Assembly (NCBI GenBank): GCA_943355005.1
Contig: CALRDV010000004.1
Location: 7,898-71,897, forward strand
From: Patescibacteria group bacterium
Lineage (GTDB): Bacteria; Patescibacteriota; Microgenomatia; UBA1400; MFAQ01
Reading direction: 5' to 3'
Length of the DNA: 64,000 nt
A program made the translations under genes and the position numbers. Numbering within the stretch: position 1 is the stretch's first letter; each line of letters starts with the position of its first letter. The notes beneath the pieces were generated by a model. That model saw only the letters and a program-made list of their open reading frames with translations, had not been told where the DNA came from and did not search any database. Positions 7,042-60,915 of the stretch are shown here, piece after piece.

Positions 7042-7174
7042 CTCCGAACATTTTTTATATATCGCAGATAAAATAGTCACGGATTGGTTCAGGTTTTGTA
7101 TACTTGGGGTCACAGTGAAAAATCCTTCGCTTGTCGAGGGATTTTTTATTGTCATGAGAGGATGGTAGTTCTGG

Positions 7175-31174: not shown

Positions 31175-31223
31175 AAGTTTATCCGGATGGATTCCCGATC
31201 AGGTCGGGAATGACAGGATGGAT

Positions 31224-34253: not shown

Positions 34254-34256
34254 AAG

Positions 34257-34285
34257 AAAATCTCTCCCTAGTGGAGAGATTTTTT
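34257..34285 (+). terminator. Rho-independent terminator after tRNA-Asp
   Basis: TCTCTCC pairs with GGAGAGA across a CTAGT loop, followed by a T6 run. Confidence 0.6.
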
Positions 34286-34375: not shown

Positions 34376-34831
34376 ATGGATATTTTTTCAGCACCCACAA
34401 CCGTCTATCGAGTCGATGGGCCGCCCAATAGGGGCTTATGGTATAACCCCGATGGAAAGTTCGTCGGAGAAATTCACAACAACCTATCATTTTGCCACGC
34501 AAGTGCATTGGAAATGCCTTACGACAAAACCTTAGTGGGTTGGCGTTCTTGCACAGAGACGCTAGAAGATCTCCTGCTCTGGATTTCGTTAGAAGAGTTT
34601 GTCCAGCTTGAGAGTAGGGGTTTTAAGGCATCGGTTTACGAAGCTCATCAAACGAAAACCTATATTCACATAGACCATGCGACGGGGCTTCAAATGCCTC
34701 ACCTGGTCTTCAAGAAAGACGCAGCACGATTGATCCGTCTTCTCTCGGTTAGGGAACTTGGTCTTCAACTCGAGGAAGACAAGCTGATTTCTTCAATCAA
34801 CTTAAGCCAGCAACAAATAGTCCCTCGCTAG
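34376..34831 (+). CDS. Hypothetical protein (151 aa), GC-elevated
   Basis: ORF of about 46% GC against a local background of about 38%. No motif. A terminator hairpin at 34821-34845 overlaps the stop codon. Confidence 0.45.
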   Translation: MDIFSAPTTVYRVDGPPNRGLWYNPDGKFVGEIHNNLSFCHASALEMPYDKTLVGWRSCTETLEDLLLWISLEEFVQLESRGFKASVYEAHQTKTYIHIDHATGLQMPHLVFKKDAARLIRLLSVRELGLQLEEDKLISSINLSQQQIVPR

Positions 34832-34854
34832 TCGAGGGATTTTTATTGCATAGA

Positions 34855-34941
34855 GGGACTCGAAATGCCGGAGTCGAACCCGTAACTGTTTCGGCGAGGT
34901 GGGTCCGAGAGAATTCCGAAGGGATTACTCGAGGGAGTCTC
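34855..34941 (+). ncRNA. Candidate structured RNA element, copy A (unclassified)
   Basis: It shares the core ATGCCGGAG(T/C)CGAACCCGTAAC(T/G)GTTTCGGCGAGG and GGTC(C/T)CGA...GAGGG(G)AGTC with copy B at 41753-41831. The closing stem GGGACTC/GAGTCTC covaries with B's GTGGGAC/GTCCCAC. An internal hairpin carries a GTAAC loop. Confidence 0.3.
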
Positions 34942-34967
34942 GTTCCCCCCAGCCCTGAACTTTTTTA

Positions 34968-41752: not shown

Positions 41753-41831
41753 GTGGGACGAGGAATGCCGGAGCCGAACCCGTAACGGTTTCGGCGAGGC
41801 CGGTCTCGAACAAAAGTGAGGGGAGTCCCAC
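41753..41831 (+). ncRNA. Candidate structured RNA element, copy B (possible cis-regulatory leader of HD gene)
   Basis: Closing stem GTGGGAC/GTCCCAC. The core ATGCCGGAGCCGAACCCGTAACGGTTTCGGCGAGG forms a 9-bp hairpin with loop GTAAC. The element ends 45 nt before the HD-gene ATG. Confidence 0.3.
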
Positions 41832-41875
41832 AAATTAAGGGTAGGGTCCCAAAAATAGTTAGAGTAAAATTAACC

Positions 41876-42538
41876 ATGGATGATTTGAATAAGACACAAA
41901 TAATTGCAAATACAGAGGAGTTTGTTAAGGGAAAGTTACTTGGTGAAGGGTCTGGCCATGATTGGTGGCATATTAAGAGAGTCTGGGATTTGGCAAAAAA
42001 TATATCTAAAAATGAAAATACTGATATATTTGTAGTGGAATTAGGCGCGTTACTTCATGACATAGCCGATTGGAAATTTAACGATGGTGATGAATCAATT
42101 GGTCCCAGATTGGCAGAAGAATGGCTTATAAGTCAAGGAGTTGATGGGAGAATTATTCAAACTGTCAAAGAGGCTATTGAGGACGTGTCGTTTAAAGGTG
42201 CTGGTGTTACAAAGAAGAATAGATCAAAAGAGGGTGAAGTTATACAAGACGCAGACAGACTAGATGCGATAGGGGCAATTGGAATTGCAAGATGTTTTGC
42301 GTATGGTGGTTTTAAGGGTAGAGAAATATACAACCCTGATATTAAACCTGTGTTAGATCAAACCTCGGAAGAATATAAGAAAAACTCTGCACCATCGCTT
42401 AATCACTTTTATGAAAAATTACTTTTACTAAAGAATCTGATGAATACGGAAACCGGTAAACGGATTGCCAATGATCGACATAAGTTTATGGAAATTTATC
42501 TTCAAGAATTTTTTTCTGAATGGGACGGAAAAAGGTAA
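41876..42538 (+). CDS. HD-domain phosphohydrolase (YfbR/YedJ-like)
   Basis: GHDWWHIKRV ... LLHDIAD ... DADRLDAIG carries the HD motif. Start at the ATG at 41876 (MDDLNKTQ). Confidence 0.7.
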   Translation: MDDLNKTQIIANTEEFVKGKLLGEGSGHDWWHIKRVWDLAKNISKNENTDIFVVELGALLHDIADWKFNDGDESIGPRLAEEWLISQGVDGRIIQTVKEAIEDVSFKGAGVTKKNRSKEGEVIQDADRLDAIGAIGIARCFAYGGFKGREIYNPDIKPVLDQTSEEYKKNSAPSLNHFYEKLLLLKNLMNTETGKRIANDRHKFMEIYLQEFFSEWDGKR

Positions 42539-42575
42539 TTTAAGTGCAATTAAAGCCCAAGGAGTAAAATTAACC

Positions 42576-42992
42576 ATGATTGATTTAAAGAAGAAAATTG
42601 AAAAAGACATGAGGTCTGTAGAAAAGCAGATCAAACAGGCGGCGACCGAACGTGATGAAAGTGCTACACCAACTGAATCTACTCATGATCAAACCCGCCA
42701 GATTGCGAATCAGCTTTATAATTCCTTACTGGAGGAGAGGAAAAAACTGGGAGAAATTTTGGGCCTGGCCGGTAATTACAACACCGTAGTAAGAATCGGA
42801 AATCTAACCACCGGAACTACTCAAAAATATTTCGTTGTACCGAATGGTCTGGGAGGGACATCCGAAGGAGATATTATTCTACTGAGTGAGAAGACACCTT
42901 TAGCCAAAACGATCTCGGGCAGGAAGCCTGGGTCAGAGTTTGAACTGAATGGGCAAAAACTAAGGATAGAGAAGATTGAGGAGAATAAATAA
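42576..42992 (+). CDS. GreA/GreB-family transcription elongation factor-like protein
   Basis: N-terminal coiled-coil, then a C-terminal FKBP-like segment VVRIGNLTTGTTQKYFVVPNGLGGTSEGDIILLSEKTPLAKTISGRKPGSEFELNG. 138 aa. Confidence 0.55.
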   Translation: MIDLKKKIEKDMRSVEKQIKQAATERDESATPTESTHDQTRQIANQLYNSLLEERKKLGEILGLAGNYNTVVRIGNLTTGTTQKYFVVPNGLGGTSEGDIILLSEKTPLAKTISGRKPGSEFELNGQKLRIEKIEENK

Positions 42993-43028
42993 TTTCCGGA
43001 TGGATTCCGGGTCAAGTCCAGAATACGA

Positions 43029-47429: not shown

Positions 47430-47728
47430 CCTCGCATCTTCTCGATGTATTTTTTGACTTGTCTTTTGGCTTGATTCCTGACACGAACAACACCGTCCAT
47501 GAGAACCTTGTGGGTATCTTTGATGTTTATGGGAGAACCTGGTAAATTCATGTCGAACTTAATCTCGTAGCCGGAGCGGGTAACCTTTTCAATAGAGAGC
47601 GAGGCAATCTTTAGATCTTCTTGGTAGTTTTTTAAGAGCTTGCCTAACCCTTGGTCGAATTTTGTTTTTATCCTTTGTCGAAATCTTTCGCTGAGTGATA
47701 ACTTTTGGGGATTGAAAACTATGTTCAT
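47423..47728 (-). CDS. Ribosome hibernation factor (HPF/RaiA short form)-like protein
   Basis: The 101-aa protein MNIVFNPQKLSLSERFRQRIKTKFDQGLGKL... follows the HPF beta-alpha-beta pattern. The upstream part of the ORF-track frame is repeat-derived. Confidence 0.4.
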   Translation of the reverse strand: MNIVFNPQKLSLSERFRQRIKTKFDQGLGKLLKNYQEDLKIASLSIEKVTRSGYEIKFDMNLPGSPINIKDTHKVLMDGVVRVRNQAKRQVKKYIEKMRGY

Positions 47729-47844
47729 AGTATTGATTGTAATACAACAGATGAATCCCCGCTTTCGCAAGGAAGACGGTGGAGTGAGATTGCCGCGGAG
47801 TACCTCGCAATGACGAAGAGTGAAATATATTTTATAATGAAATA

Positions 47845-55523: not shown

Positions 55524-55663
55524 GTGGAGTGAGATTGCCACAGCTCGAGTACGAGATTCGCAATGACGGTCTTTGTCATTCCTGCGCAGGCAGGAATCCA
55601 TTCAATTATTCCGAATTCTGTATTTATTTGATGGATTCCGGGTCAAGCCCGGAATGACAAGGT
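55524..55663. repeat. Cluster of dispersed palindromic (MITE/REP-like) repeat units
   Basis: Three units: GGTGGAGTGAGATTGCCACAGCTCGAGTACGAGATTCGCAATGACGG; GTCATTCCTGCGCAGGCAGGAATCC; and GATGGATTCCGGGTCAAGCCCGGAATGAC. Related copies lie at 31183-31225, 42996-43030, 47752-47825, 58761-58898 and 59521-59690. Confidence 0.65.
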
Positions 55664-56390: not shown

Positions 56391-57450
56391 CAGGAAGGGC
56401 CAGAACTAGCCAGAAAGTAAAATTGAGCCAGATGTAGAAGAAGCTGTTGTTGAAGAAACTGTGAAAAAGTATCGTGAACATAAATATCTTGATGGGCAAA
56501 GAGATCTCAGCCAGAGCCTTCTTTATCAATACGAAGAAAGTGATTAATCCTGCCAACCCCGTAGTGGCAGCAATAGCAATATAACTATTGTCTATCTGGA
56601 ATCTATCTCCGGTAATGTTCCTTAAGGTGTTATAACCCCAGCCGAACAGTGGCCTTTGGATAAATAATTCGAGCCCTGTTCTCCAGCTGTCAAAACGGGA
56701 AAAAATTGAAAAAGTTCTTAGTAAATTAACCCCTTCTCCAAAAGGCTTAGGAATAATCCAAATAAGTAAACCTAAACCTAAGAGAAATAAGGTTAGAGAG
56801 TATTTTTTATTTACGATTAACAAATAAACAATACCCAAAAGGAAACAGAGGTAGGATGCTCGAGAAAAGGTCAGAGCCAAAAGAATTATTAACGGCAAAC
56901 TAGCCAACCAACTCCCCAAAGAAATAAATGACAGAGCGCTTGCCGCCAGAATTGCCCCGGTGAAGTTTGGATCGTAAAGAGAGCCAATCAAACGAAAATA
57001 GTGATCATCAAAGCCGATCAGTTTCAAATATCTCATGTCCGGGAATAATAAATATTGAAGAGCACCAAGGAGACAAAAAATTGCCAAGGAAATTAGAGCC
57101 GGTTTTAATATATTTTTTTTGGAGTTTAATTTGGCGGCGAAGTAAACTGATGGGTAGGCAAACAATCTACCCAAATAGAGGAGGGGATAGATAATTCCCC
57201 CGCTTTGAAGATTTTTCAGATTAAACACCAAAGAAAGCAGAGCAACTCCTAGAAACCAAGCCAAGGGCATAAATAACTTATCAGTATAGATTTTGGCGTG
57301 GTTCTTTCTTCCTACAATAAGTGAAACGGTAAGCAGACCAAGGACGATATCCAAGAGGTAAACATTGCCAATGGAGCCGGGAATTGAAAAAGCAAGTAGT
57401 TGCCCAAATGGCCAGACAAAAATGGAAAGAATTAATAATAAATAAGTCAT
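56368..57450 (-). CDS. Polytopic membrane protein, O-antigen ligase/polymerase (Wzy_C)-like
   Basis: About 10 TM segments with a large periplasmic loop. The annotation follows the glycosylation-cluster context. 360 aa. Confidence 0.45.
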   Translation of the reverse strand: MTYLLLILSIFVWPFGQLLAFSIPGSIGNVYLLDIVLGLLTVSLIVGRKNHAKIYTDKLFMPLAWFLGVALLSLVFNLKNLQSGGIIYPLLYLGRLFAYPSVYFAAKLNSKKNILKPALISLAIFCLLGALQYLLFPDMRYLKLIGFDDHYFRLIGSLYDPNFTGAILAASALSFISLGSWLASLPLIILLALTFSRASYLCFLLGIVYLLIVNKKYSLTLFLLGLGLLIWIIPKPFGEGVNLLRTFSIFSRFDSWRTGLELFIQRPLFGWGYNTLRNITGDRFQIDNSYIAIAATTGLAGLITFFVLIKKALAEISLPIKIFMFTILFHSFFNNSFFYIWLNFTFWLVLALPVKGYTQE

Positions 57451-58937
57451 TTTGTCAGTTTAAATATTTGAATTCCCAATTTATTTGTATTTACCAAAAC
57501 CCCCTTGATATTTCCCGAGTCCTCCCCTATCGTTACCAAATAATCATACCCCGAAAAGTTTGTGACCCATGAAGTATGATCAAAATCACGAGGGAAATAA
57601 TATAGATTGTGCAGCTTATCTACGATTATTTTACTGTCTTTTGGAAGACTTGCGACAAAGCCATCCGCATCAATAAAGATTCCAGGCAGGCGAAAATATT
57701 GAGAGGTTAAAAGAGTGTTTGTGTCTACCCTACCCAACAAGAACGGAATGTATTTTTGCATAGCCAGCAAGCGAAGCCCTAAGATTAAAAAGCCCGATAA
57801 AATAACTGCCCAAAATGTGATTTTTTGATAGATTGCATTTTTTATAGTGCTTAGGTAGACAATAACCGAAACAATTAGAGCCGGAAAGTAAGGCAAGAAA
57901 TACCTGGTGGAAGGTGGGACCAGAATCATGGTGAGAATACTGCCGAGTATGCCTACTACGGCAATTTTTCCAGCAATATTGTTTTTTTGCTTCAGAGAAA
58001 TTATGGCTAAGATAAAAACCAATCCCACTAGTGGAGAAACAAAATCATCAAAAGGTTTTGTGAGATACCATGGCGTAAGCAAAACGTGCTGAAAAGCACT
58101 TCCAATACCCGAAAATGAGTTGTCTGTAAGACCACTAAACAACGGATAAATTGGATTTCCGGTAAACCTGTATGCCAAATAGAACCAAGGAGAAGCCACC
58201 AAGATTGCAGGAAAAATGATTTGAGGACCAAACACAATACTATAAATCGCCAAAGTACCGAGCGCGAGCCATTTAGTGCCTATTGCCAGCCCCAAAAAAA
58301 TGCCTCCTATTTTCCAAGAACCTTTAATACAAAAATATAAAGCCAAAGCTTCCAAAAAAGTTCTAATGAGATCTATGTAGGCACTTCCAGACTGCCAGCT
58401 CACTAGCCAGGTGCAGTAAAAAAGAGAAACGCCAATCAATTTCCACAATGTGGTTTGTTTAAAATTCTCCAGAATTTTCCAGATGACATATCCCGTTCCT
58501 ATTCCGGCTAAGTATTGGACCAATTTGGGTCCAACGGTGCCGGTGAAGTGGATGAGAGGGGTGAAAATGGTTTCGGCTAGTCTTGGCATGACCGAGTAAT
58601 AAAGTAGCCCACCCGGGAAATACCATTGGTGCTTTAAAAGCCACAATTTTGGGATGGTCAGGTGGTACCAGAGCGCGTCGAAGCCGAGCTCGGGGGTGAA
58701 GACGAGGAGAAAATTGAGGAGGGCTAGTAAAATGATGGGGACTAAAAGAAGCACTACTAACCTGGATTGCCACAGCTCGAGTACGAGATTCGCAATGACG
58801 TGGGTGGAGGGAGATCGATTAACAGCTATTTTGTCATGCCGGACTTGATCCGGCATCCAGGCTTTTCTGGATTCCGGGTCGGAGTCCGGAATGACGTCAA
58901 TTATTTTTGAGTTAAGAGTTAGTTTTGGTTTTCCCAT
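57447..58937 (-). CDS. GT-C fold membrane glycosyltransferase-like protein (ArnT/PMT-like); N-terminal ~55 codons are repeat-derived and probably not coding
   Basis: Many TM helices followed by a C-terminal soluble domain. The 5' end of the ORF (58761-58937) coincides with dispersed repeat units. Confidence 0.45.
   Translation of the reverse strand: MGKPKLTLNSKIIDVIPDSDPESRKAWMPDQVRHDKIAVNRSPSTHVIANLVLELWQSRLVVLLLVPIILLALLNFLLVFTPELGFDALWYHLTIPKLWLLKHQWYFPGGLLYYSVMPRLAETIFTPLIHFTGTVGPKLVQYLAGIGTGYVIWKILENFKQTTLWKLIGVSLFYCTWLVSWQSGSAYIDLIRTFLEALALYFCIKGSWKIGGIFLGLAIGTKWLALGTLAIYSIVFGPQIIFPAILVASPWFYLAYRFTGNPIYPLFSGLTDNSFSGIGSAFQHVLLTPWYLTKPFDDFVSPLVGLVFILAIISLKQKNNIAGKIAVVGILGSILTMILVPPSTRYFLPYFPALIVSVIVYLSTIKNAIYQKITFWAVILSGFLILGLRLLAMQKYIPFLLGRVDTNTLLTSQYFRLPGIFIDADGFVASLPKDSKIIVDKLHNLYYFPRDFDHTSWVTNFSGYDYLVTIGEDSGNIKGVLVNTNKLGIQIFKLTK
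58761..58898. repeat. Dispersed palindromic repeat units
   Basis: CCTGGATTGCCACAGCTCGAGTACGAGATTCGCAATGACG is a near-exact copy of 55527-55566. TGCCGGACTTGATCCGGCA and TTCCGGGTCGGAGTCCGGAATGACG palindromes follow. Confidence 0.6.
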
Positions 58938-59773
58938 TGGAAGGTGCGGACGGTTAGTGATTGGACTGCCATCAAGTAAGCCAAAAATAATCCCGCCGTG
59001 CCGTCCAGGATTCCAGCTTTAAAGAAATAATTGACTTTAAATTTGAGCAGGGGATAGAAAATTAGACGAAACCAGGAAAATGGTTTGTTTTCTAAATTTA
59101 AATATTTCGCATCAATGGGACTGTACTTTCCCATTCTGTTCGAAAATGCAGACACAAAATGATCTTTCCGGTGATAGAGAGGTGATGCCAGCTCCCCTAC
59201 CCTACCTTTGATTTTCCAAACTTCATGGACAGTTCTAAAAAAATTTCCGGCGCTCCGCTTGGCCAACCTGAGAATTTTTATGTTTCCAGTTTCACCATGG
59301 CTTAAGGGCTGATGAAAAATGACATCTTTGCGACGTATACAGTAACCTGAGCACTTTGGATCTTTGAGGGTTTCAATTATTTCTCTTTGAAGCTCACTTC
59401 CCACATATTCATCATCATCCACAAATAGTACCCAGTCGGCCTTGGTCTGCTCTAAAGCGAAGTTTCTTTGGGCTGAGAAGTCGGAGTTGAGTGGGTGAGA
59501 GATGTATTTTATTTTTGATTTTTTGTTTTGGTCCAGATGGATCCCCGCCTTCGCGAGGATGACATTTGCGGAATTTCTGGATTCCGGGTCAAGCCCGGAA
59601 TGACGGGTGACGGTACCTGGATTCCAGGTCAAGCCCGGAATGACTGAAGTTGAGTCGAGGATGACAGAAATTGAATCCTGGATTACGATGATTTCGTCGG
59701 CGAAAGAAATTGACTTTAATAACTGTGAACTAAGAATCGAATTATTTGTAATGATGGCGACAGCTAGTTTCAT
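58919..59773 (-). CDS. GT2-family glycosyltransferase carrying an in-frame repeat insertion
   Basis: MKLAVAIITNN...ADEIIV and DDDE are GT2 motifs. Residues about 34-83 (DSISVILDSTSVIPGLTWNPGTVTRHSGLDPESRNSANVILAKAGIHLDQ) are encoded by repeat units at 59521-59690. Confidence 0.55.
   Translation of the reverse strand: MKLAVAIITNNSILSSQLLKSISFADEIIVIQDSISVILDSTSVIPGLTWNPGTVTRHSGLDPESRNSANVILAKAGIHLDQNKKSKIKYISHPLNSDFSAQRNFALEQTKADWVLFVDDDEYVGSELQREIIETLKDPKCSGYCIRRKDVIFHQPLSHGETGNIKILRLAKRSAGNFFRTVHEVWKIKGRVGELASPLYHRKDHFVSAFSNRMGKYSPIDAKYLNLENKPFSWFRLIFYPLLKFKVNYFFKAGILDGTAGLFLAYLMAVQSLTVRTFQWENQN
59521..59690. repeat. Tandem/dispersed palindromic repeat units inside the GT2 ORF
   Basis: CTGGATTCCGGGTCAAGCCCGGAATGACG at 59576-59604 and CTGGATTCCAGGTCAAGCCCGGAATGACT at 59617-59645 are 41 nt apart. 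GAGGATGACA occurs twice. Confidence 0.6.
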
Positions 59774-60915
59774 TGGCCTAAAATCTTCTTACTAACTCTA
59801 TTTGACAAACTTAAAGATGGAATTTCGACATATTTATAAACCAGGAGAGAAACTCCTGTGGCAATCAGGGTAGACAGAATCAGTAAGACGAAATGGATGG
59901 TTAAATAATAATCTGCATAGGGAAGGTTGGGAAGATAAAGAAACATGAACCTAGCCAAGATATAGAGGATAGAAAAATGGATGAGATAAAGACTGTATGA
60001 TATTTTGCCAAAAAATTGAAGTGTCTTGTTGTCCAGAAAATCAAATAATTTGGTTTTGTCGCTATAGATGATGAGTCCTATCAATTTCCAAGAGACAATG
60101 GCTTCAAAAACACCACCAACATACTCATCTGTCATATATCTGGTAACGAGCAAAATCACTAGTGTCACCGGTAAAGTAAGAGCGATGTACCAGTTCGGAA
60201 AATGGGAGAAGAATTGTTTAAATTTGGGCAACATCAGTCCAAGAAAAAACATATATAAATACCTTAAATCGCGAAAATCAGGAATATTAAAAATGGTAAA
60301 GTCTGCATAAATTAGTGCGACCGCAATTAAAAGATCAACAAACCAAGAGGTCTTTCTGGTGAAATGATAAAAAATTGGAATAATAAAGGAAGCAATGACA
60401 ATTACCCGTAAAGTCCAAGTAACTCCCCCCAAATAGGTGTGAATAAAAAATAAATTGTAGAAAAACTCTTTGAAAGTCATCTCAAAGTTCATCCACCAGA
60501 TGTACCAAAGCGAGGCTTGAGGAAAGGTCTGATAGACGAAGCCCAGCCGCATGTATAGAGCAATAAGTAAGATTACAAAGATGTAGACAGGATAAAGTCT
60601 AATCAATCTTTTGGTAATAAATGCAAACAAACTTCTTGGTGAAAATTCGACACGGCTGAGTGACTGTCCCAAGACCAATCCTGAGAGAATAAAAAATAAA
60701 GTGACAGCTGCTCCCCCATTCCCCAGAATCATCAACAACTGCTGAATCTTGCTCTGTAAATCGTGAAACTCGAAATAGTTCTGACCCCAGACATTGGCAA
60801 AAGCCGGAATGGCTACCACCAGAAATGAATGATTCAAAGCAACTATCAAAGATAAGATACCGCGTAAACCGTCAAGTTTGGTGATGCGTTCGGGTTTTTT
60901 TGACTCCATCATCAT
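59770..60915 (-). CDS. Acyltransferase family 3 (OafA-like O-acyltransferase) membrane protein
   Basis: The N-terminal ITKLDGLRGILSLIVALNHS is the AT3 motif. About 10 TM. Confidence 0.7.
   Translation of the reverse strand: MMMESKKPERITKLDGLRGILSLIVALNHSFLVVAIPAFANVWGQNYFEFHDLQSKIQQLLMILGNGGAAVTLFFILSGLVLGQSLSRVEFSPRSLFAFITKRLIRLYPVYIFVILLIALYMRLGFVYQTFPQASLWYIWWMNFEMTFKEFFYNLFFIHTYLGGVTWTLRVIVIASFIIPIFYHFTRKTSWFVDLLIAVALIYADFTIFNIPDFRDLRYLYMFFLGLMLPKFKQFFSHFPNWYIALTLPVTLVILLVTRYMTDEYVGGVFEAIVSWKLIGLIIYSDKTKLFDFLDNKTLQFFGKISYSLYLIHFSILYILARFMFLYLPNLPYADYYLTIHFVLLILSTLIATGVSLLVYKYVEIPSLSLSNRVSKKILGQ

Follow-up and report, generated by a model that had tools for sequence, protein, structure and literature searches.

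Whether a gene that keeps its reading frame open across repeat DNA still encodes a working enzyme is the question raised by a glycosyltransferase gene in the 64,000-nucleotide (nt) stretch of a Patescibacteria group bacterium analysed here (GenBank assembly GCA_943355005.1, contig CALRDV010000004.1, positions 7,898 to 71,897 of the forward strand; the whole stretch is hereafter the window). The gene belongs to glycosyltransferase family 2 (GT2, GT-A fold), lies at 58919-59773 on the minus strand and encodes 284 amino acids (aa). A sequence-only reading of the window had proposed that a repeat element is inserted in it in frame, either as a tolerated surface loop or as the mark of a pseudogene. 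In this report, we describe the insert as an array of repetitive extragenic palindromes (REPs), describe a second such cluster in the overlapping gene downstream and trace both insertion sites through orthologous loci. Our analysis of sequences and predicted structures suggests that GT2 probably still works as an enzyme and bears a REP loop that is translated and disordered, the repeats being tolerated. This explanation is favoured over that of a pseudogene because the frame of the host gene is the sole open one through the insert, the invariant residues are kept, the predicted core is intact and orthologues also have in-frame repeats.

The repeat array inside the GT2 gene

The open reading frame (ORF) of GT2 runs uninterrupted through 284 codons, repeat included, as the sequence-only reading had stated; the stop of the acyltransferase gene upstream (59770-60915) overlaps the GT2 start. 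Residues 33-82 (DSISVILDS...AGIHLDQ) are encoded by repeat DNA. The envelope of 59521-59690 drawn around this DNA was correct in substance and slightly generous in its limits; the expanded loop between strands beta-2 and beta-3 takes up codons 34-82 (SISVILDSTSVIPGLTWNPGTVTRHSGLDPESRNSANVILAKAGIHLDQ; 59528-59674, minus strand), about 42 codons more than in orthologues. Its units, GC-rich hairpins of 24-28 nt, follow one another head to tail on the coding (minus) strand, three of them complete and a fourth truncated. As read from the sequence, the truncated unit (GTCATCCTCG..., 59645-59665) is the 5' half of a unit of the d type, and its 10-nt head is the same as that of unit d. Unit b (AGTC-ATTCCGGG-CTTGA-CCTGGAAT-CCAG, 59618-59645) has an 8-bp stem with one mismatch and a 5-nt loop and encodes VIPGLTWNPG. 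Unit c (CGTC-ATTCCGGG-CTTGA-CCCGGAAT-CCAG, 59578-59605), which read in another phase gives RHSGLDPESR, has a core identical to that of an intergenic copy at 55632-55658, and unit d (TGTC-ATCCTCGC-GAAG-GCGGGGAT-CCAT, 59538-59564) has a 4-nt loop and encodes VILAKAGIH. The GC content of the insert is 0.54 versus 0.40 in the remainder of the gene, and only one of its six frames is free of stop codons, namely the frame of the host gene. Translation through the array would yield the insert-encoded tryptic peptides HSGLDPESR, NSANVILAK and AGIHLDQNK. No intrinsic terminator was found on either strand of 58600-59900, and the sequence that follows the hairpins in the sense RNA is A-rich, not U-rich. 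A CRISPR-like array was considered and rejected, as the units are 27 nt long, are separated by spacers of only about 13 nt and are also dispersed singly. No feature supporting removal of the insert as an intein, as an intron or by a bypass-type mechanism was noticed, no search having been aimed at these.

The Pfam GT2 profile PF00535 matches the protein with 39.2 bits (cutoff, 23.3), and the match is confined to residues 83-150, which correspond to profile positions 50-117; the N-terminal third of the GT2 domain is therefore interrupted. In an alignment of 118 sequences, the window protein keeps the family residue in all of the 28 invariant and 37 near-invariant columns, and D119, D121 and E122 of the VDDDE motif are invariant; the approximately 200 codons downstream of the insert are intact. 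AlphaFold2 modelled the insert-bearing protein, a check that the sequence-only reading had suggested, with an intact GT-A core and a disordered insert: the predicted local distance difference test (pLDDT) score was 87.3 overall, above 93 in the core outside the insert and below 50 at residues 37-46 and 48-65. Foldseek matched the model to SunS, ThuS, TarS, TarP and SpsA, with SunS and ThuS on top, and the sequence profile of the family matched GmaR (E = 1.2e-15) and SunS (5e-8). The conserved Asp that ends beta-2 (D33) immediately precedes the insert and the DxD motif lies about 85 codons farther downstream; the DxD-proximal position previously given for the insert is not supported.

Orthologous loops and the overlapping GT-C gene

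We retrieved 337 relatives in a protein search, the closest of which are annotated as Candidatus Collierbacteria, Microgenomates and Woesebacteria and are nearly all 241-243 aa long; the best matches come from Ca. Collierbacteria, with 55-68% identity. The alignment to homologues called for by the sequence-only reading gave a measure of the insertion, since the stretch from E27 to N96 comprises 70 aa in the window protein versus 27-28 aa in 72 of the 118 aligned sequences (the others having 10-15 aa in 21 cases, 29-50 aa in 21 and 26 aa in three), a net excess of about 42 aa or 126 nt. This excess, together with the recurrence of the same units at five other sites in the window, bears out the claim that repeat DNA has been inserted in GT2. 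A loop of at least 29 aa occurs in 22 of the 118 sequences, window included, and most of the longer loops consist of REP-type peptides that vary between orthologues, for example SVIPGYDPES, VIPAKAGNH, SRHCEEV..NLTPP, RHCESRTRAVAIS, ISRHRERSVAIQ...FEYETRND and RHCEAGNLPAGRS. The loop DNA of eight insert-bearing orthologue loci was obtained by individual look-up. Two loci (L092 and L167) carry one clean REP each, and a third (L168) carries a REP with additional sequence nested in its loop; L002 and L166 have a long-loop unit of the type present at 58762-58800 in the window, L165 and L169 have two units of opposite orientation, and L081 has the flanks of L002 around a different filling of 66 nt.

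In a neighbour-joining tree built without the loop, the REP-bearing members are scattered in one large clade, and one more (P0038) lies outside it. Because the nearest relatives of the window protein (P0002 and P0009, 65-68% identity) carry plain loops of 14-16 aa that contain no REP peptides, the window insert is judged to be derived; the comparison of presence and absence among orthologues, also proposed beforehand, thus placed the insert apart from its closest kin. The scatter of differing REPs over the family points to the GT2 loop as a recurrent hot spot, in which REPs landed or were exchanged many times.

The sequence-only reading had ascribed a short loop at this position to canonical GT2 enzymes in general, whereas only the subfamily to which the window protein belongs has one. 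More distant Patescibacteria homologues keep the canonical DDxSTDxT motif, helix alpha-2 and strand beta-3 (VIDDxSTDxTVxIAKKxGAKVY), whereas motif and helix are absent across the Collierbacteria/Woesebacteria-type GT2 subfamily, in which a poorly conserved loop of 13-14 aa is found instead. In the subfamily, a short, fast-evolving loop has replaced the canonical DxSTD/alpha-2 segment. The window protein has the GT-A fold of GmaR, SunS and ThuS, whose structures have been solved; these enzymes keep a GSTDST-helix after beta-2, unlike the GT2 subfamily, which has at this place the short loop that serves as REP hot spot. The loss of DDxSTDxT and helix alpha-2 is seen in the window at 59675-59683, and in some relatives (226-230 aa) the connection is even shorter, at 10-15 aa.

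The gene that follows GT2 (57447-58937, minus strand) encodes a GT-C-fold membrane glycosyltransferase of 496 aa, and its ATG overlaps the 3' end of GT2 by 19 nt. Pfam and NCBIfam gave no match for the protein. Its predicted structure (pLDDT 91.2; below 50 over most of residues 1-34) upholds the GT-C label that it had been given, the top Foldseek matches being ArnT (5ezm, E = 9e-7), ALG12, ALG9, STT3 and PimE. A second in-frame REP cluster, of 53 aa, occupies GT-C codons 7-59 (58761-58919, minus strand); it begins directly after the GT2 stop codon (58919-58921), and among six frames only that of the host gene is stop-free. The cluster contains three REP units. Unit e (CGTC-ATTCCGG-ACTCCGAC-CCGGAAT-CCAG, 58868-58896, minus strand), with a 7-bp stem and an 8-nt loop, forms a tail-to-tail dimer with unit f (TGTC-ATGCCGGA-CTTGA-TCCGGCAT-CCAG, 58832-58859, plus strand), and the third is the long-loop unit g (CGTC-ATTGC-GAATCTCGTACTCGAGCTGTG-GCAAT-CCAG, 58762-58800, minus strand). 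The insert-encoded tryptic peptides would be IIDVIPDSDPESR, AWMPDQVR and SPSTHVIANLVLELWQSR.

The order of genes in orthologous operons (Acyl_transf_3, GT2, a membrane protein of 442-443 aa and Wzy_C) is conserved, and the 19-nt overlap of the membrane-protein ATG with the end of GT2 is also present in orthologues. The window GT-C protein starts with MGKPKL where orthologues have MGKRKL, continues with 53 extra residues and then enters the conserved first transmembrane helix. The spurious N-terminal extension at 58761-58937 described in the sequence-only reading is thus better described as a conserved native start followed by an internal insert of 53 codons at 58761-58919. Different REPs are found at this site in orthologues, where they add 12 aa (L166) or 33 aa (L165), and inserts after GT-C residue 6 occur in eight of 117 relatives besides the window. 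We regard the site after the GT2 stop, from these comparisons, as a second REP hot spot. It is the normal 'extragenic' position of a REP just 3' of an ORF, and it is coding here because the GT2 and GT-C genes overlap. As a separate observation, the GT-C protein P0122 on a 99-kb public contig is recorded only as a 282-aa product from an internal codon, though the ORF is open for 496 codons; the short product probably reflects how the REP insert affected gene calling.

A GT-C protein identical over its 496 aa is encoded on a separate 3.5-kb ENA contig (L164), and the GT-C insert is therefore not peculiar to one assembly. This contig bears on the possibility that short-read assembly created or distorted the GT2 REP array or its number of units. 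Assemblies do break at these REPs, and the GT2 protein is recorded from a single contig; however, the flanks of the array are two halves of one gene, ordered and in frame, a typical read exceeds the whole array (128 nt) in length, REPs occur at exactly this loop in independent genomes and the neighbouring insert is reproduced on the ENA contig, all of which makes an assembly artefact highly improbable. The breaks deserve mention in their own right: the L164 contig ends inside GT2, and L169 has a gap of N at 1020-1030 within its REP-bearing loop. Because public assemblies of related populations break or contain gaps inside the loop, REP inserts in genes of the candidate phyla radiation (CPR) probably go under-reported or show up as truncated proteins. 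In the close loci that we examined there was no real frameshift, the sole 'truncated' match (P0028/L169) being a scaffold gap inside a REP.

The remaining choice is between a tolerated loop and an intact-looking, very young pseudogene, inactivated by the REP cluster (for example at the nucleotide-binding edge near D33) and still open by luck or recency. The beta-2 Asp of GT-A enzymes contacts the nucleotide, and since the insert begins only one to three residues past D33, a loop of 42 aa beside this residue could impair donor binding. The window insert is also the longest in the family, about twice the length of any other, and Pfam recognizes residues 83-150 only. Units b and c are nearly identical to each other, and unit c is identical to the intergenic copy, so that the insertion may be so young that no decay is visible yet. 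These points weigh against a functional enzyme with a translated loop, and three more have to be set beside them: the GT2 insert is on record from one assembly (P0001, with one member and one contig); most orthologues were found via predicted intact proteins, which biases the sample against disrupted alleles; and translation of GT-C could start downstream of its insert, at a GTG near codon 62-63, as in some orthologues annotated with such late starts (P0129 and P0136). On the other side, no mark of a pseudogene (frameshift, premature stop or loss of essential residues) is present in the 284 codons of GT2 or the 496 codons of GT-C, the conserved residues and the codons downstream of the insert are intact, the surrounding operon is intact, and orthologues keep in-frame REPs in the same loop. 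In addition, a neutral insertion would combine the right orientation, an open phase and a length divisible by three with a chance of about 1 in 18 per gene, and GT2 and GT-C both meet this independently. We therefore consider inactivation unlikely. Of the two outcomes that the sequence-only reading had left side by side, the tolerated loop is the one favoured, and the pseudogene is the less likely.

REP class and distribution in the window

REP units occur at six sites in the 64 kb, comprising GT2, GT-C and four intergenic sites. A structural detector, which required only GTC, a 7-9-bp stem, a 3-8-nt loop and CC in the tail, found eight clean units in the window versus a mean of 0.12 and a maximum of two in the 200 simulated sequences used as null. 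The 26-nt core is present three times as an exact 26-mer, including the copy at 55633-55658, and none is expected in shuffles. The tag of the clean units is TGTC in five, CGTC in two and AGTC in one. Seven of the eight have an 8-bp stem starting with AT (two with one mismatch) and one has a 7-bp stem; the loop has 5 nt in five units, 4 nt in two and 8 nt in one; and the tail reads CCA, then G or T, in all eight. The long-loop ATTGC subtype (58762-58800 and 55533-55568) departs from the rule of a 4-5-nt loop, and its sequence CGTCATTGCGAATCTCGTACTCGAGCTGTGGCAATCCAG shows no difference over 36 nt between 55533-55568 and 58765-58800.

The largest intergenic site is a cluster of three units at 55533-55659 (no strand assigned to the cluster as a whole), between tRNA-Gly and a gene with a Big/Glucodextran_B domain; its units are a long one at 55533-55568 (minus strand) and others at 55574-55600 (plus) and 55632-55659 (minus). 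A single REP (TGTC-ATTCCCGA-CCTGA-TCGGGAAT-CCAT, 31188-31215, minus strand) separates the LemA gene from the peptidase M48 gene and lies 10 nt past the upstream stop codon, and a degenerate one (43001-43027, minus strand) lies between convergent genes for a GreA-like protein and a PD-(D/E)XK nuclease. The distance of these two copies from stop codons is 2-10 nt; the GT-C insert directly follows one. An ATTGC-type REP (TCGTC-ATTGC-GAGGTACTCCGCG-GCAAT-CTCA, 47786-47815, minus strand), with a partial unit downstream, is taken to be intergenic rather than coding because the 101-aa ORF downstream of it likely starts near 47728. About half of the units in the window lie inside genes, and their dimers have tail-to-tail or head-to-tail orientation. 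Since the 55533-55659 cluster and the GT-C insert match in both end units and in length (130-135 nt), REP mosaics seem to move or to be copied as blocks.

Target-site duplications were not identified at the insert junctions, and the clusters do contain inverted units with end units in common. A search for a transposase, restricted to ten genes that flank REP sites, was negative. At gathering score, Rfam returned only tRNAs from the window. Below that threshold, the REP dimer at 58813-58916 matched the Wolbachia family WsnRNA46 on both strands (about 30 bits versus 65, E = 0.0025), which is a hint of relatedness between REPs and not of membership; WsnRNA46 may itself be built on CGTC-type REPs. 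Strict REP detection across 168 loci gave few clean units outside Collierbacteria-like loci.

CGTC-tagged REPs have been defined (Di Nocera, De Gregorio and Rocco 2013, PMC3733652) by an unpaired CGTC tag (often TGTC or CCTC), a stem of 8-9 bp whose first two positions are a complementary A and T, a loop of 4 nt (family 1) or 5 nt (families 2-4) and an unpaired tail of the CCA type. They are predominantly extragenic, near the 3' ends of ORFs and mostly in head-to-head dimers, and their super-family includes dRS3 of Neisseria and the Rickettsia elements RPE-4 and RPE-6 (PMC3733652). On tag, stem, loop, tail and dispersal, we assign the window repeats to this super-family. They resemble families CGTC-1 and CGTC-2 in the tag, the AT-starting 8-bp stem, the loop of 4 or 5 nt, the CCA tail and the presence of several subtypes in one genome, and some of them share with CGTC REPs the location just downstream of ORFs, occasional intragenic clusters being known there as well. 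Intragenic CGTC REPs, including clusters that encode 43-82 residues, have already been reported, and the supplementary table of that study lists VIPAKAGI in two R. conorii genes (CGTC-1), VIPGLDPGIH in Starkeya novella and RHSGGGRNL in Sphingomonas wittichii (PMC3733652). The peptides VILAKAGIH, VIPGLTWNPG and RHSGLDPES found here are of the same types. The differences lie in the host, a Collierbacteria-like member of the CPR/Patescibacteria, in the tail-to-tail and head-to-tail rather than mostly head-to-head dimers, in the intragenic position of about half of the units and in the common long-loop ATTGC subtype. Patescibacteria are not among the five phyla of the published survey (PMC3733652), and the literature knows no dedicated transposase for the CGTC class. 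The sequence-only reading had called the element MITE-like (miniature inverted-repeat transposable element). A dispersed repeat element it is, but CGTC-type REP clusters fit better than a classical MITE, with no target-site duplication identified.

Two further systems invite comparison. E. coli BIMEs and Neisseria NIMEs (bacterial interspersed and Neisseria intergenic mosaic elements) are extragenic composite arrays of REPs in alternating orientation with short linker motifs. The 55533-55659 cluster and the GT-C insert, with their common end units, are similar composite mosaics; unlike the extragenic BIMEs and NIMEs, the mosaics within the two window genes would be translated. Rickettsia palindromic elements (RPE; Ogata et al. 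2000, 2002, as cited in PMC10969869 and PMC3733652) are inserted in frame in functional genes. As far as the citing accounts go, the likeness is that of selfish palindromic repeats that lie in frame in genes of a small and compact genome and whose translation adds surface segments. The units of RPE-1 described there have 100-150 bp and a conserved peptide, whereas the window inserts are mosaics of REP units of 24-39 nt; in addition, two fixed sites are reused across orthologues with differing REP content. Membership of RPE-1 is not claimed, and the mode of in-frame insertion is all that the two have in common. In the collection of papers that we searched, none linked REPs to Patescibacteria. 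The window inserts are a new example of a known phenomenon rather than a new kind of element, apparently the first in CPR, and what they add is modest, namely that orthologues use these two sites time and again and that a connection with overlapping genes emerges.

Some other features of the window are recorded here. An element of about 90 nt is present in two copies, at 34855-34950 and 41755-41850 (minus strand), and its conserved 3' part CCTCGCCGAAACNGTTACGGGTTCGRCTCCGGCATT resembles a tRNA T-arm. Both copies lie shortly downstream of a tRNA gene, that at 34855-34950 between terminator-like hairpins; neither ARAGORN nor Rfam called the element. A second, unrelated hairpin family (AAAAATCCCTCG-CTAG-TCGAGGGATTTTT) at 7118-7146, 34256-34284 and 34816-34844 resembles bidirectional intrinsic terminators, and the hairpins at 34256 and 34816 are downstream of tRNA-Asp. 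The adjacent ORFs 41816-42538 and 42465-42992, the latter with a GreA/GreB C-terminal domain, have ribosome-binding-site and start regions (33 nt; 41862-41894 and 42562-42594) that are 88% identical, and the two ORFs are probably a tandem duplication.

Proposed history and meaning of the inserts

The following sequence of events would account for the two inserts. In this operon, overlapping genes leave no intergenic DNA, and spreading REPs would persist only where translation through them is harmless, selection having purged insertions that were out of frame or bore stops. The surviving positions would be, in GT2, the degenerate beta2-beta3 loop and, in GT-C, the cytoplasmic tail that precedes the first helix, and resident copies may then attract or exchange further units. 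The GT2 product would carry the repeat as a disordered surface loop of about 45 residues, and the GT-C product would carry a longer cytoplasmic N-terminal tail.

The inserts might instead have been kept for a role, either as RNA hairpins that set mRNA stability or translation rates in an operon devoid of intergenic space or as a diversifying loop near the sugar-donor pocket. Both sites recur in many genomes with varying REP content, the GT-C site lies exactly at the junction of GT2 stop and GT-C start, and a function as RNA elements has been proposed for REPs elsewhere (PMC3733652). The sense RNA of the two inserts also folds better than shuffles (z = -2.7 and -3.4), but these scores are modest and as expected of any hairpin repeat. 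Because some 80-90% of orthologues are without inserts (about 80% for GT2 and about 92% for GT-C) and the content of the inserts is not conserved, an adaptive role is not favoured; the closest relatives of the window also do without the insert, and we hold such a role to be rather improbable. It is equally doubtful, in our estimation, that REP turnover at the two sites of this cell-envelope glycosylation operon is more than tolerated junk, with REPs that act at the RNA level (on stability or on translational coupling at the GT2/GT-C junction) being forced into coding sequence in ultra-compact CPR genomes with overlapping genes while generating hypervariable loops near the sugar-donor pocket. 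If true, this would amount to repeat-driven diversification of surface-glycan enzymes.

With the tolerated loop as the preferred explanation, the two inserts would extend to CPR, with their tiny and gene-dense genomes, the in-frame insertion of selfish palindromic repeats that is best known from Rickettsia and a few Proteobacteria. For annotation, REP peptides in CPR proteins (VIPxxAGI, RHCEE, RHSG, ...RND) would then have to be read as neither domains, wrong starts nor pseudogenes. The hot spots would point to positions that are structurally dispensable in one GT-A and one GT-C enzyme, and the orthologues provide a natural series of loop lengths for tests of tolerance, from 0 to +42 aa in GT2 and from 0 to +53 aa in GT-C. 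Together, these observations would support a general rule whereby REPs, in genomes without intergenic space, survive only at permissive coding sites.

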